Assembly (NCBI GenBank): GCA_036170455.1
Contig: JAVHPG010000237.1
Coordinates: forward strand, 14,827-78,826
DNA length: 64,000 nt
Direction of reading: 5' to 3'
Source: Elusimicrobiales bacterium
Lineage (GTDB): Bacteria; Elusimicrobiota; Elusimicrobia; Elusimicrobiales; UBA9959
The position numbers and the translations under genes were made by a program. The notes beneath the pieces are model-generated. The model saw only the letters and a program-made list of their open reading frames with translations. It made no database searches and had not been told where the DNA came from. Positions 22,095-26,532 of the stretch are shown piece by piece; position 1 is the first letter of the stretch, and each line of letters opens with the position of its first letter.

Positions 22095-24743
22095 ATGCAA
22101 AGCTACCAGATACGCAAAAGTTTTTTGGATTTTTTCGCCAAACAGGGGCATCCCGTGGTTAAATCCAGCCCGCTCATCCCCGAGGGCGACCCCACCCTTC
22201 TTTTCACCTCCGCCGGCATGGTGCAGTTCAAACCGTATTATCTCGGGCTGAAAACGGATATGAAGCGCGCGGCTTCCTGCCAGAAAAGTTTCCGCACCAC
22301 CGACATAGACAATGTCGGCAAGACCATCCGCCACCTGACCTTCTTCGAGATGCTCGGAAATTTTTCCTTCGGCGATTATTTCAAGAAAGAGTCCCTGAAC
22401 TGGGGCTGGGAATTCTTTACGAAAGAACTGGGGCTCCCGGCCGACCGCTTCTACCCGTCCATCTATAAAGGCGGCGTGGCCCCGCGCGACGAGGAAGCCC
22501 GCGCTATCTGGGAGAACATCCTTCCAAAGAACCTTCATTCCCACATCATAGAGCTGGGCGACAAGGATAATTTCTGGGCGATGGGCGAGACCGGGCCCTC
22601 CGGCCCCTGCTCGGAGGTTTACTGGGACCGCGGCGCGAAATACGACCATCCCGGCTGCGAGGGCCCCGGCGCCTGCTCCTGCGACCGCTACATCGAGATC
22701 TGGAACCATGTCTTCACTCAGTTCGACAAGCAGGCCGACGGGACTTTCAAGCCGCTCCCGCGCAAGAACATCGACACCGGTATGGGCCTTGAGCGCCTGA
22801 CTTTCGTGGTGGAAGGTAAAGAATCGCCTTTCGAGACTTCGCTTTTTCAGCCCATAATGCAGGCGGCCTCGAAGCAGCTTAAGGTGGAACCCGGCTCTTC
22901 CGAAGAGGCCGACTCCGCTTTCCGCATCATCAGCGAGCACTTGCGGGCTTCCTCTTTCCTGATCGCCGAGGGTATCATGCCCTCCAATGAGGGCCGCGGC
23001 TATGTGCTGCGCCGCCTTATCCGCCGCGCCGCGCGCTACGGACGGATCCTCGGCGCCAAAGACCCTTTCCTTCACAAGCTGGTGCCTTCCGTGCATGAAA
23101 TATTCAGGGACGTCTATCCTGAAATAATTTCCGCGGAGAAACAGATCTCGGCCGCCCTTAAATTCGAGGAGCAGGGCTTTATAGAGACGCTCGGGACCGG
23201 GGAAAAATTCCTGGCCGACCTGCTGGAGAAATACCCGCGCGGCGTGCCCGGCGGCGAGGCTTTCAAGCTTTACGAGACCTACGGTTTCCCGATAGAGCTG
23301 ACGCGCGAGCTTGCGCTTAAAAAGAATATCCCGCTGGACGAGAAAGGTTTCGAGGCCGCCCGCAAGGCCGCCCAGGAAATCGCCCGCGCCAACTGGAAGG
23401 ATTCCGGCGAGCAGGACGGTTTTATTTTCCAGACCGCGGAAGAGAAATTCCCGGCCACAGTTTTCAAGGGCTATGACGTCACCGAAACCGATTCCTCTAT
23501 CCTGGGATTGCTGGACCTGAAGGGAAATATCGTCGCTTCGCTGCCTGCCGGTTCGGACGGTCATGCCATCCTGGACGTCACGCCTTTCTACGCCGAATCC
23601 GGCGGCCAGGTGGGAGATGTCGGCGAGCTTTTGGCCGGCGGCGCCAGCGTGGCGGAGATCGTCAACACCCAGAAGCCGGTGAAGAAAGTTTATTTCCACC
23701 ATGTAAAACCCGCCTCCGAACTGAAGGCCGGTATGAAGGTGCGCGCGAAGGTTTCGACGCTGCGGCACAATACCGCCTGCAACCATACCGCTATCCACGT
23801 GGTGAACGCCGCGCTTAAAAAAGTTTTCGGGGAAAGCACCCGCCAGGCCGGCTCCGAGGTGGACCCGCACAGGTTCCGCTTCGACTATACTATCACCAAG
23901 ACTCCCTCCAGGGAAGAAATGGCGGAAGTCGAAAAGATAGCTAACGAAGCCGTGGGCCGCAAATACAAGGTCCTTAAAATGGAGCGCCCGCTCAAGGACG
24001 CCGCTAAATTCGGCGCCACCACCCTGCTGGGAGAGAAATACCAGGACCCGGCGCGCTTCGTGCTGATAAACAACGGCGGCTGGGACTCGGCCGGCGACCA
24101 TTACAGCCTGGAGCTGTGCGGCGGCACGCATATCGATTCGCTCGGCGAGCTGGTGGTCGTGAAGATACTCAAAGACTCCTCCGTTTCGCGCGGCGTGCGC
24201 CGCATAGAGGGCGTGGCCGGGCCCGCCGCGGTGGCCCACCTGACAAAGCTGGCGGGCTTCGCCGAAGCCGCGGCCTCAAAGCTTTCCGTCCCGCCGCAGA
24301 ACCTGCCCGCGCGCGTGGACCAGCTGCTTGAAAACATCAAAGAGCTCAAAGCCGGCAAAGCTAAAGCCGCCCCGGCGGTATCCGCAAAAGAGGGGCGCAG
24401 GCTGCTGACCGAGGGCATAGACGGCTCCGGCTCGAGCTTCCTGATCTATGACGCCGGCGGGCTAGGAATGAGGGACCTGCGCGGGCTGTCGGACGAGGTA
24501 AAAAAAGACCTGAAGTCCACGCTGCTTTTCATATACTCCAGGGCTGAAGGAAAATTCTCTTTCATAGTTACCTATACGGGGGATGTAAAAGCCGACGCTT
24601 CCGCTATCGCCAAATGCGTGGCGGACATGATAAACGGCTCGGGCGGCGGCCGCAAGGACTTCGCCCAGGGCGGGGGGGAAATCCCCGCAGATATCCCCGC
24701 TTTCGAGAAGCAGCTGGTAGAAATAGCGAAGAAGCATGTGTAG
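22095..24743 (+). CDS. alaS: alanine--tRNA ligase
   Basis: Class II motifs (FTSAGMVQFKP, FEMLGNFSFGDY), editing-domain HTAIHVV and CGGTH, and a C-terminal DHHA1-like GGGRKDFAQGGG. Confidence 0.95.
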   Translation: MQSYQIRKSFLDFFAKQGHPVVKSSPLIPEGDPTLLFTSAGMVQFKPYYLGLKTDMKRAASCQKSFRTTDIDNVGKTIRHLTFFEMLGNFSFGDYFKKESLNWGWEFFTKELGLPADRFYPSIYKGGVAPRDEEARAIWENILPKNLHSHIIELGDKDNFWAMGETGPSGPCSEVYWDRGAKYDHPGCEGPGACSCDRYIEIWNHVFTQFDKQADGTFKPLPRKNIDTGMGLERLTFVVEGKESPFETSLFQPIMQAASKQLKVEPGSSEEADSAFRIISEHLRASSFLIAEGIMPSNEGRGYVLRRLIRRAARYGRILGAKDPFLHKLVPSVHEIFRDVYPEIISAEKQISAALKFEEQGFIETLGTGEKFLADLLEKYPRGVPGGEAFKLYETYGFPIELTRELALKKNIPLDEKGFEAARKAAQEIARANWKDSGEQDGFIFQTAEEKFPATVFKGYDVTETDSSILGLLDLKGNIVASLPAGSDGHAILDVTPFYAESGGQVGDVGELLAGGASVAEIVNTQKPVKKVYFHHVKPASELKAGMKVRAKVSTLRHNTACNHTAIHVVNAALKKVFGESTRQAGSEVDPHRFRFDYTITKTPSREEMAEVEKIANEAVGRKYKVLKMERPLKDAAKFGATTLLGEKYQDPARFVLINNGGWDSAGDHYSLELCGGTHIDSLGELVVVKILKDSSVSRGVRRIEGVAGPAAVAHLTKLAGFAEAAASKLSVPPQNLPARVDQLLENIKELKAGKAKAAPAVSAKEGRRLLTEGIDGSGSSFLIYDAGGLGMRDLRGLSDEVKKDLKSTLLFIYSRAEGKFSFIVTYTGDVKADASAIAKCVADMINGSGGGRKDFAQGGGEIPADIPAFEKQLVEIAKKHV

Positions 24744-24784
24744 CCCTTTAAGCTAAAGGGGTATAATGTAGTTCGCGGTCATAT

Positions 24785-24859
24785 GCGCCCGTGGTGAAAT
24801 GGATATCACAGGAGCCTCCGAAGCTTCTAGTGCAGGTTCGATTCCTGCCGGGCGCACCA
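24785..24859 (+). tRNA. tRNA-Arg (anticodon CCG), CCA encoded
   Basis: The cloverleaf folds by hand: acceptor GCGCCCG/CGGGCGC, D stem GTGA/TCAC, anticodon stem GGAGC/GCTTC with loop CTCCGAA, T arm GCAGG-TTCGATT-CCTGC, discriminator A plus CCA. 75 nt. Confidence 0.9.
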
Positions 24860-24874
24860 AAATCTGTTATAAGG

Positions 24875-25029
24875 AACCCGGAGCGAGACATGGTTGTCTC
24901 GCGTCAGGAATCGAAAGCCGGAGCCGCGAGGCCACCAGGCCGCAGCGGCGAGGCGGGGTCGCAGGTCCCGGTGAGCGACGGCGAACCGGGAACCTGTGAC
25001 CGACTGCCGGGCTTAAGAAGTAACGGGTT
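24875..25029 (+). ncRNA. candidate structured RNA or structured leader (class not recognised)
   Basis: Closing helix AACCCG/CGGGTT. Hairpin GCGAGAC/GTCTCGC (24883-24902). Hairpin 24923-24949 with an ACCA loop. A 15-bp helix pairs 24957-24971 with 24986-25001 (one G-U, one bulge). Confidence 0.3.
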
Positions 25030-25053
25030 AGAAAACATCTCCATTCTCCCCAC

Positions 25054-26532
25054 ATGAATTTCGAAGAAGAAATTTCCCTCCTTATAAAATCCCGGTATCC
25101 CCTGGTGCTGGTGGACGCTATCGACGAGAATTATGTACTGGGGCAGCTGCAGGGCGTGGCGGAAGAGCAGGCCCTGACTTTTTACTGCTGGTCCCTCACC
25201 AAGGGCCTGCGCATAGGCAGGAACGAAAATTCATTTTATAAATCCGGCGACCCCGTGGCCATGCTGCGCATAGCCAACGACCTGATAAAGGACCCCCACA
25301 GCGCCCTTTTCGCTTTCTCCGACTTCGACCGCTACCTGGGCGACGCCGCGCCGGCGCGGCTCTTCAAGGACATGCTAGACCGCATAAAAGGCACGCCCAC
25401 CACGGTGGTGCTGCTGGGCGCCGAGGGGAAGCTTCCTTCCGATATCGCTCCCCTGGCCGCGCGCATCTCGGGCGGCTTCCCCGACGAAAAGCAGATCCTG
25501 GCCGAGATCAACAAGGTGCTGGTCGAATTCAAAATGACGGGCGCGCGGCTGGAGATAGACATGCCGCCGGACGCCCTGCGGCGCGTGATCAAGACCCTCA
25601 AGGGCCTTTCCCTGCAGCAGATCCGCAACGCGCTAAATCTTTGCATCCTGAAGGACTCGCGGTTCGACGGGAAGGATATTTCCACGATAGAGAAATTCAA
25701 GAAAGAGGCTTTCGACCAGGGCGGCATCCTGGAATATTTCGGCTCCGAGCAGGTAAATTCAATCGCCGGCTTCGACAATTTGAAACGCTGGGTCGCCGAC
25801 CGCAAGAATTCTTTTTTCACCGACGGCCCGCTCCCGCCGCCAAAAGGCCTGCTGCTCCTGGGGGTGCAGGGCTGCGGCAAGTCGCTCGCGGCCAAGGTCA
25901 TCGCCGGCGAGCTCGGCATCCCGCTTTACCGGCTCGACCTGAACAGGCTTTATTCCAAGTATATCGGCGAAACCGAGGAGAACCTGCGCAAGGCGCTGGC
26001 CACGGTGGAGCGCCTGGCCCCGGTCTGTCTCTGGATAGACGAGATAGAAAAAATTTTCGCCTCGTCTTCCGGAGAGATAGACGGCGGCGTGTCAAAGCGC
26101 GTGCTCGGGACCATGCTAACCTGGATGCAGGAGCGCAAAGACCGCTCTTTCATCGCCGCCACCTCCAACGATATTAATAATTTGCCGCCCGAGCTGCTGC
26201 GCAAGGGCCGCTTCGACGAGATCTTCTTCGCCGACCTGCCCGACGCCGCCGCGCGAGAAGGCATAATCAATATCCACCTCGAAAAGCGGGGCCTCGATCC
26301 CGCGCTGTTCGACGTGCCCGTGCTGGCCGCCAGCTGCGGCGGCTTCAGCGGCGCCGAGATAGAGCAGGCCGTCATCTCGGCTCTTTACAGCGCCTCCGGC
26401 GCGAACGAAAAGATTGCCTCGAAACACGTGCTGGAGCAGCTCAAGCTTACCCGGCCGCTTTCCGTCATCAAGGCCGAGGCGGTGGATTTTCTGCGCAATT
26501 GGGCGAAGGAGCGGAGCATACTTCTGGTGTGA
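25054..26532 (+). CDS. AAA+ ATPase (classic AAA clade) with an ~250-aa uncharacterised N-terminal region
   Basis: Walker A GVQGCGKSLAAK, Walker B CLWIDEIEK, sensor-1 IAATSN, and second region of homology PPELLRKGRFDEIFF. There is no SD. The start overlaps (ATGA) the stop of a 55-codon upstream ORF. Confidence 0.85.
   Translation: MNFEEEISLLIKSRYPLVLVDAIDENYVLGQLQGVAEEQALTFYCWSLTKGLRIGRNENSFYKSGDPVAMLRIANDLIKDPHSALFAFSDFDRYLGDAAPARLFKDMLDRIKGTPTTVVLLGAEGKLPSDIAPLAARISGGFPDEKQILAEINKVLVEFKMTGARLEIDMPPDALRRVIKTLKGLSLQQIRNALNLCILKDSRFDGKDISTIEKFKKEAFDQGGILEYFGSEQVNSIAGFDNLKRWVADRKNSFFTDGPLPPPKGLLLLGVQGCGKSLAAKVIAGELGIPLYRLDLNRLYSKYIGETEENLRKALATVERLAPVCLWIDEIEKIFASSSGEIDGGVSKRVLGTMLTWMQERKDRSFIAATSNDINNLPPELLRKGRFDEIFFADLPDAAAREGIINIHLEKRGLDPALFDVPVLAASCGGFSGAEIEQAVISALYSASGANEKIASKHVLEQLKLTRPLSVIKAEAVDFLRNWAKERSILLV

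Follow-up and report, generated by a model that had tools for sequence, protein, structure and literature searches.

The DNA analysed here, called the window throughout, is a stretch of 64,000 nucleotides (nt) from an Elusimicrobiales bacterium (contig JAVHPG010000237.1 of assembly GCA_036170455.1). In it, a tRNA-Arg(CCG) gene and the gene for an AAA+ ATPase are separated by a spacer of 194 nt, and the genes around this spacer are alaS, AAA+, TPR and NapH-like. The spacer is an insertion of a non-coding module of ~140 nt from a large family without an Rfam match. This module, hereafter the element, occurs once in the window, no further copy being found there by blastn-short or by the covariance model R1. 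The family is new: it is structured, tied to the tails of tRNA and transfer-messenger RNA (tmRNA) genes, provided with arms that match the target, folded in a strand-specific manner, and subject to turnover between species. The parts of the window copy, followed by its neighbours, are listed below, where copies on the tRNA strand are termed A-type and copies on the opposite strand B-type.

24877–25014, + strand: whole element, match of covariance model R1 (130.2 bits, E = 2e-33)
24837–24859, + strand: T3, the tRNA-Arg segment from T-loop to CCA, whose sequence is copied and complemented by the element arms
24860–24873, + strand: linker AAATCTGTTATAAG between tRNA and element, kept in the A-type Elusimicrobia copies (alignment)
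24874–24881, + strand: antiAcc remnant GAACCCGG, a decayed complement of the acceptor 3′ strand CCGGGCGC
24883–24902, + strand: hp1, an 8-bp hairpin GCGAGACA-TGGT-TGTCTCGC (24883–24890 paired with 24895–24902)
24905–24915, + strand: antiT CAGGAATCGAA, exact complement of the T-loop and T-stem 3′ strand (24837–24847), and 5′ strand of the closing helix with T3′
24916–24956, + strand: junction AAAG, Pj, P2, then GG, with conserved unpaired nucleotides and covarying pairs
24917–24919 with 24952–24954, + strand: Pj, a 3-bp helix around a GGAG/GA internal loop and P2, with a C-G/G-C swap at the middle pair
24923–24949, + strand: P2 hairpin with ACCA loop, pairs covarying
24957–25001, + strand: P3, the long helix GGUCGC.../...GUGACC with apical loop UGAGCGACGGCGAA (24957–24971 with 24986–25001; 97% paired)
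25001–25012, + strand: T3′, CGA^CTGCCGGGC, direct repeat of the tRNA 3′ end from C56, with a 3-nt (TTC) deletion and a decayed end
24890–25057, + strand: open reading frame (ORF) of 55 codons, not a gene (frame unconserved, no Pfam match)
22095–24743: alaS, just upstream of tRNA-Arg(CCG)
24785–24859, + strand: tRNA-Arg(CCG) gene, CCA encoded (ARAGORN; Rfam tRNA model 65 bits)
25013–25053, + strand: native pyrimidine-rich leader of the AAA+ gene, without Shine–Dalgarno sequence (SD); a comparable short leader abuts the tRNA in element-free relatives
25054–26532, + strand: AAA+ ATPase gene, 492 aa, without SD (Pfam AAA, 5e-29); a neighbour, not part of the element

The plus strand of the spacer is predicted to fold at -95.1 kcal/mol, compared with -70.4 +/- 4.6 kcal/mol for dinucleotide shuffles (z = -5.4, with 0 of 200 shuffles as good), and the minus strand has z = -4.1. 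The original prediction, made from this sequence and exact in all its coordinates when we re-checked them, had likewise described a highly structured spacer, and its short hairpin (hp1), its hairpin with ACCA loop (P2) and its long helix (P3) are all backed by relatives. Two further pairings did not hold. The outer helix AACCCG/CGGGTT has its 3′ partner in unconserved sequence, and the family instead pairs CCCGG with CCGGG at 25007–25011 (the CCCGG of antiAcc could also find a partner in the tRNA, at 24848–24852). As for the alternative pairing CTCGCG/CGCGAG, the hp1 strand covaries solely with its own partner. The exact reverse complementarity of 24905–24915 to the tRNA T-arm at 24837–24847, mentioned earlier only in passing, is correct and is the key feature of the element.

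Orthologous loci with and without the element

When genomes were scanned with the AAA+ protein, 80 loci came up, of which the first 59 are almost all from Elusimicrobia metagenome-assembled genomes, and tRNA-Arg(CCG) precedes the AAA+ gene in nearly all of these 59. The distance between the two genes is bimodal, with 8–63 nt in 16 loci and 188–358 nt in 26 loci and the window. Short spacers are exemplified by loci L012 and L018, which read GCGCACCA-AAGTTTTA-ATG, and the long spacers hold the conserved element. It is A-type in 17 loci and the window and B-type in eight (L001-3, L005, L024, L030, L036 and L046). In addition, L035 carries one and a half tandem copies, L053 carries two identical B copies and a truncated A copy, and L041 has an extra B copy 1.7 kb past the AAA+ gene that still bears a tRNA-Arg-type arm with no tRNA near it. 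The flanks of the window and of L001-3 share 89–91% DNA identity, and their alignment breaks exactly from the tRNA 3′ end to the AAA+ start, the reason being that the window has an A-type copy and L001-3 have a B-type one. L006, though more distant (83%), can be aligned with the window without a break.

These comparisons bear directly on the earlier proposal that the spacer is a cis-regulatory leader of the ATPase gene (a riboswitch or attenuator), or else encodes a leader peptide of 55 codons translationally coupled to it. The spacer does lie upstream of an SD-less gene and folds strongly; a scan of 24600–25200 for promoters and terminators gave no such site separating the tRNA from the AAA+ gene, which would place the element in a 5′ untranslated region (UTR); and the ATG at 24890, the GGAG 6 nt before it and the ATGA overlap at 25054–25057 are present as described. 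Yet the reading frame is interrupted by stop codons (within 0–30 codons) or lacks an ATG in nearly all relatives. The hp1 loop differs in length by 1–2 nt among them, and indels shift the frame. The supposed SD, GGAG, belongs to the CCGG-AGC edge that is constant in the element, and the ATG of the ORF falls within the hp1 loop and stem. Furthermore, some relatives that share the gene order have the element inverted or not at all, which excludes a role as dedicated regulator of the AAA+ gene; members of the family go with the upstream tRNA or tmRNA gene, and their downstream genes are unrelated. The absence of an SD was noted correctly, but it is not linked to the spacer, since the AAA+ gene is SD-less in every relative, with or without the element, and starts 8–25 nt past the tRNA-Arg 3′ end where the element is absent. 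A leader function, as RNA or as peptide, is thus contradicted by the relatives, and we consider it very improbable; what survives of the first interpretation is the unclassified structured element, not the leader peptide or the AAA+ cis-regulator.

A pyrimidine-rich stretch precedes the AAA+ start in the window (25013–25056) and in L012, L018, L004, L020 and L025. The arrangement suggests that the gene may be expressed from the alaS–tRNA transcript, as a near-leaderless mRNA made by tRNA 3′ processing.

Several smaller features were seen at these loci. A separate hairpin module of ~29 nt, GGCGGATGGAGCAAAGCGACATATCCGCC, is present in the element–AAA+ interval of L006, L008, L010, L011, L022, L029 and L035, twice in L026, and in L019 once inside the core and once outside; its loop resembles the conserved P3 loop GAGCGACGGCGA, and the module behaves as an independent small insertion. 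Between alaS and tRNA-Arg there is ~1.3 kb in L004 (633–1945) and L005 (2446–3717), and the L005 insert encodes a 234-aa secreted hypothetical protein whose N-terminus resembles a signal peptide and which shows no obvious link to mobility. This insert and a 2-kb gap in L053 were considered as sites of mobility genes and rejected, the contents being the secreted hypothetical protein and a PAS histidine kinase. Short tandem or dispersed repeat units occur in the tRNA–AAA+ spacer of L059 (AACAGCAGTAACCAGTAACCAGTGACCAGT) and downstream of the element in L042 (CAAGTCTCAAGTCACAGGTCACAAG-like).

A conserved fold with arms matched to the tRNA tail

The consensus structure of 24 Elusimicrobia copies (RNAalifold) has 30 pairs, 19 of which show compensatory double changes. 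When 104 copies were aligned with model R1, 94.8% of the cells held standard pairs, compared with 70.9% in column shuffles (0 of 500 as high), and the covariation score was 0.488, compared with 0.153 for shuffled alignments and 0.05–0.07 for slid controls. Both sides change in 27 of the 30 pairs, so that the covariation in related genomes, proposed earlier as a check, is strong. All nine pairs of hp1 covary, and this helix is 98% paired over the 104 copies; the middle pair of Pj is swapped between C-G and G-C (59 vs 42 copies), and one position of P3 holds a G.U pair in 96 of 103 copies. The unpaired segments GAAAG, GAG, GG and GUGAC are more than 90% conserved. In all 25 Elusimicrobia copies compared, B-types included, the fold of the core strand is more stable than that of its complement, on average by 10 kcal/mol. 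These patterns are the signature of one folded strand under selection, most likely RNA, with single-stranded DNA also compatible. A hammerhead or other ribozyme was considered and rejected, as there is no model match and the junction strands are too short.

Read along the core strand, the element consists of antiAcc, AGC-hp1-GCG(Y), antiT, AAAG, Pj/P2, GG, P3 up to GUGAC, and T3′. The first arm, antiAcc, complements the acceptor 3′ strand over up to 13 nt and is often decayed; it often reaches over the discriminator and the CCA into a few bases of the flank. An intact form is seen in L008 and L010 (TGCGCCCGG), and full complements of 10–13 nt are found in L123, L126, L130, L132 and L140. The second arm, antiT, is the complement of the T-stem 3′ strand and T-loop, with a median of 11 exact nt; in the window its match to the tRNA T-arm can be extended to 14 nt at 93% complementarity. 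The third, T3′, is a direct repeat of the tRNA tail from C56, with a median exact repeat of 18 nt (56 copies). It is intact in L042 (CGATTCCTGCCGGGCGCA) and in L013 (with CCA) and truncated in 18 of 62 copies, and the repeat runs 0–17 nt past tRNA position 73, sometimes through a terminator (L123, L126).

The arms match the tRNA beside which each copy lies. In 36 of 55 copies a 12-mer of antiT is complementary to the own tRNA at 11 or more of its 12 positions, and five T-stem-specific positions make 3.78 Watson–Crick matches to the own tRNA, compared with 2.61 after permutation (maximum 2.98 in 200 permutations). The closing helix formed by antiT and T3′ is 81% paired, against 69% when shuffled, with a covariation score of 0.382 vs 0.172 (0 of 500). 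The hairpin hp1 is a constant module placed exactly between the acceptor-complementary and the T-stem-complementary arms; it falls exactly at the acceptor/T-stem boundary, and the paired arms and hp1 therefore reproduce the topology of the acceptor/T stack. The predicted fold resembles an acceptor/T minihelix in which hp1 would stand in place of the tRNA body and the core in place of the T-loop. This junction topology fits a tRNA-like structure of the sort that RNase P/Z and the CCA-adding enzyme process, but antiAcc often takes the CCA and flank into its pairing as well (L123, L130), and T3′ is often truncated. Since the ends are mutually complementary, they look alike in either orientation, and B-type loci thus also read tRNA, complement, core and direct repeat on the tRNA strand.

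The copies of the tRNA tail were also inspected for signs of their origin. T3′ has a CCA where the gene copy lacks one in nine cases, and the reverse case never occurs. We rejected CCA status as a signal of retro-origin, because the pattern would arise just as well if the original gene end were the right-hand copy. Nucleotides 74–77 do not differ between occupied and free tRNAs. A remodelled tandem tRNA copy was likewise rejected, as the 5′ arm is the Watson–Crick complement of the 3′ strand and not a copy of the tRNA 5′ strands; tRNA-Ala copies have an A opposite U70, and L113 has GCAGG instead of the T-stem 5′ strand GTGGG. We note a sub-family in which the T-stem complement is kept and the T-loop complement is replaced by GAUGAGAAAG or GACGAGAAAG at the antiT position (L179, L162, L122, L176, L114, L120, L127, L165, L145 and L111).

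Distribution and turnover of the family

A metagenome scan with the pattern AAAGSCG-N(18-45)-GAGSCGGGGYCGC-N(15-45)-GTGRC gave at least 120 stretches, and nearly all of the 80 loci examined have significant R1 matches, which range from 25 to 115 bits and from 38 to 79% in GC content. Most of the ~90 R1 matches lie 0–60 nt downstream of a tRNA gene on the same strand, some of them within tRNA arrays. Among the matches listed, more than 20 tRNA species carry the element, with isoacceptors for Ala, Arg, Asn, Cys, Glu, Gly, Leu, Lys, Met, Phe, Pro, Ser, a Thr cluster, Trp, Tyr and Val. Six copies that first seemed to lack a tRNA are preceded by tmRNA genes. These genes (L138, L107, L152, L165, L149 and L176) are adjoined by SmpB-like ORFs, and the tags that they encode end in ...SPYFG..F.FAYA(KA/IA) or similar. 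Three copies lie in a single tRNA array in L139, a locus that is placed in Patescibacteria/Parcubacteria by its IF-2; therefore the family spans at least Elusimicrobiota and the Candidate Phyla Radiation (CPR), taxonomy having been established for the Elusimicrobia loci and one CPR contig.

In Rfam, the window interval 24000–26000 gives the tRNA model alone at E <= 10, and no family of Rfam 15 matches an element in 18 loci with diverse copies; the matches that overlap elements are three chance-level ones to microRNA models in L132, far below gathering scores. With the strong covariation, this bears out the original view of an unclassified, structured RNA-like element. A full-text search of the literature gave no description of such an element. 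Two other Rfam results concern neighbouring sequence. The Plastid-ycf2 model gives sub-threshold antisense matches on tRNA genes (24785–24857 of the window, minus strand, and several other loci), which are an artefact of tRNA-like content in that model, and a fluoride riboswitch (46.7 bits) lies at 795–880 of L147, just downstream of an A+B element pair behind tRNA-Val.

The repeated tRNA tail invites comparison with integrase-driven elements, as tRNA and tmRNA genes are classical targets of integrative elements, for instance of the ssrA islands. The module could be a remnant or miniature of such an element, a scar bounded by attL and attR in the manner of a cis-mobilizable element (CIME) of the T-loop sublocation, with its cargo lost and the tRNA-tail repeat as att core. 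A direct repeat from the T-loop to or past the tRNA or tmRNA 3′ end is what many islands show, the functional tRNA copy is the left one, and tandem arrays occur. However, a protein-recognised att site leaves unexplained how one core comes to serve tRNAs of more than 20 kinds; attP sites have nothing that corresponds to the reverse complement of the target which the element holds internally and which hp1 interrupts; and the covariation, with its conserved G.U pair, is of the RNA type. No integrase is found nearby, and blastn against phage and plasmid collections gave no match. The 26 pattern matches in the viral contigs of IMG/VR are all chance (R1 at 18 bits or less, coding-like sequence, no tRNA). 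We regard a scar of this kind as improbable.

The state of the target varies between species, which have an A copy, a B copy, both (L163, L147, L169), tandem copies or none. Whole units, comprising linker, element and tRNA-tail repeat, are duplicated in tandem, perfectly or nearly so, in L053 (1475–1993, with a period of 190 bp), L108 (1–254) and L168 (1–273). Where contigs agree fully in their AAA+ protein, their elements are identical too. The AAA+ protein of the window occurs in just one other public contig, L227, which has an identical element and whose position 1 corresponds to 24869 of the window, inside the linker; such a start would fit the breaking of assemblies where the tRNA tail is repeated. 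Among Elusimicrobia-type copies behind tRNA-Arg, Ala, Met, Leu and Val, identity is 68–88% in the core (mean 79%) and 26–83% in the arms (mean 49%). The core of the tRNA-Arg copy L017 has an identity of 0.85–0.88 to Ala, Met and Leu copies, compared with 0.78 to the Arg copy of the window; the core would therefore have moved between tRNA loci more recently than the two Arg loci diverged, with the arms rewritten each time.

The same body of data can be read in terms of a benefit to the host. The element would then be a tRNA-trailer RNA, either a functional domain of the trailer or a stable tRNA-like RNA released at the closing helix by an RNase P/Z-type cleavage, and would have the cognate tRNA as its target or partner, for instance in maturation, quality control, sequestration or 3′-end protection; the arms would be matched since the element must pair with or mimic the tRNA tail. 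The fold and the unpaired junction nucleotides are deeply conserved over two phyla, most copies are co-oriented with the tRNA and 0–60 nt downstream of it, the element is stable within strains, and in some arrays (L139, L141) a high share of the tRNAs carry it. The three-way junction lies exactly at the acceptor/T-stem boundary, and antiT is fully complementary to the tRNA despite a decayed T3′ in the window and nine Elusimicrobia copies. On the other hand, the element is dispensable, close relatives being without it at the same tRNA, and in copies of reverse orientation it is the strand antisense to the tRNA that retains the fold. Tandem identical duplicates (L053, L108, L168), direct repeats that reach into unique flank and terminators, a strong terminator that often stands between tRNA and element, and orphan copies without a tRNA are also hard to reconcile with a trailer. 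Weighing both sides, we hold a host-beneficial trailer RNA to be rather unlikely.

Interpretation and comparison with known systems

The reading we prefer, and to which we give an even chance, is that of a non-autonomous and slow mobile element that would find tRNA tails through base pairing and would have its RNA fold under selection. The mechanism that we infer has the following steps. The element would have repeatedly colonised tRNA and tmRNA 3′ ends as a non-autonomous module; its arms would base-pair with the tRNA tail, in a partner that may be RNA or single-stranded DNA, to find or fix the position; and the arms would be rewritten from the local tRNA, either by the insertion process or by later templated correction. 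The fold would be selected since an RNA of the element is needed for its propagation or persistence. The window copy would be partly decayed, given its degenerate acceptor arm and the 3-nt deletion in T3′, and would be read through in an alaS–tRNA-Arg–AAA+ transcript. A more specific version, which we offer tentatively as the less probable proposition, sees in the family a new class of mobile element, or of ribonucleoprotein, with nucleic acid as its guide. Such an element would be a structured RNA without a protein of its own, or the single-stranded DNA form of that RNA, and would have a split, rewritable guide to the tail from T-loop to CCA, together with a copy of that tail; it would be served by an enzyme encoded in trans or by the host, insert beside the gene and have its arms re-templated from the new target.

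A number of observations weigh against mobility. The element is identical across eight independent assemblies of one strain, and any mobility must therefore be slow. Copies behind different tRNAs on one contig are ~70% identical, and no near-identical dispersed copies were seen. The ORFs within 3 kb of the copies include no transposase, integrase or reverse transcriptase. An ancestral A+B tandem followed by repeat-mediated deletion could explain much of the pattern of A, B and empty sites, and if the fold has long been under purifying selection, this would accord with a host function too. As for the sampling, the metagenome loci were chosen by a sequence pattern, and the 104-copy alignment behind the pair counts was fitted to model R1. 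A search for recurrent neighbours by all-vs-all blastp of 1011 ORFs within 3 kb of the element in 80 metagenome loci returned only families of the tmRNA context, e.g., SmpB.

Provided that the family is what it seems to be, it constitutes a widespread and strongly covarying class of RNA that is absent from Rfam 15 and from the literature searched, and a large share of tRNA and tmRNA gene tails is occupied by it in at least two deep bacterial lineages. Were homing programmed by base pairing, its interest would equal that of the bridge RNAs and omega-RNAs considered below, as a programmable insertion at tRNA tails in Elusimicrobia and CPR; were the function one for the host, a hidden layer of tRNA biology in uncultured bacteria would come into view. 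The design raises the questions of how a new tRNA comes to be reflected in the arms, what enzyme is at work, and whether the RNA mimics, captures or protects tRNA tails. In practical terms, the element accounts for breaks in assemblies, for 5′ UTRs that look oddly structured and for spurious small ORFs beside tRNA genes in such genomes.

Like the integrative elements of tRNA and tmRNA genes (CIME-type), the element uses a site at the 3′ end of the gene, repeats a tail that begins within the T-loop, leaves the gene intact and forms tandem arrays. Unlike them, it is only ~140–190 bp long, comes without an integrase, serves more than 20 tRNAs with one core, contains an internal complement of its target and an RNA-type fold, and occurs in both orientations.

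The bridge (seek) RNAs of IS110/IS1111 are structured, non-coding and ~150–200 nt long, lie beside the target, and have guide segments that flank a hairpin, through which specificity could be reprogrammed; all of this is shared. However, the element has no ORF for a DEDD recombinase within 3 kb, no donor-binding loop, and no similarity to bridge RNAs in sequence or by model, and its complement is continuous (~11–24 nt) and directed at a single strand, with a long direct repeat of the target. In the TnpB/IscB omega-RNAs (IS200/IS605), as in the element, a scaffold ends at the element boundary and is followed by ~16–20 nt identical to the flanking target. In contrast to these, no tnpB or iscB lies near the copies and no Rfam match is of the IS605 type; moreover, the 3′ segment of the element pairs with an internal complement, and the target repeat is also present upstream.

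Miniature inverted-repeat transposable elements (MITEs), repetitive extragenic palindromes and their mosaics (REP/BIME), enterobacterial repetitive intergenic consensus (ERIC) sequences and Correia repeats are similarly small, non-coding and intergenic, with complementary ends, a strong fold, either orientation and no transposase. The element differs from such repeats in that its ends are copied from the local target, with no fixed terminal inverted repeats and a variable repeat length, and in that it occupies only tRNA and tmRNA tails; its copies are few, with a single one in the 64 kb of the window, and old (~70–88% identical), and covary extensively.

Finally, the primer-binding sites of retroviruses and long-terminal-repeat (LTR) elements and the tRNA-like 3′ structures of the Mauriceville plasmid, of plant viruses and of plant mitochondrial t-elements share with the element a complement of 11–24 nt to a tRNA 3′ end, in some cases including the CCA, and an acceptor/T-like closing helix that ends in a tRNA tail. 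The element, in turn, is chromosomal and lies beside the tRNA gene that it matches, with no reverse transcriptase found, and it has its complement split by a hairpin and the T-loop nucleotides paired. In sum, the element lacks, in the sequence examined, what defines the integrative elements, bridge RNAs, omega-RNAs and primer-binding sites, and it is therefore classed as a new kind, in which one conserved core stands between arms matched to the local tRNA tail.

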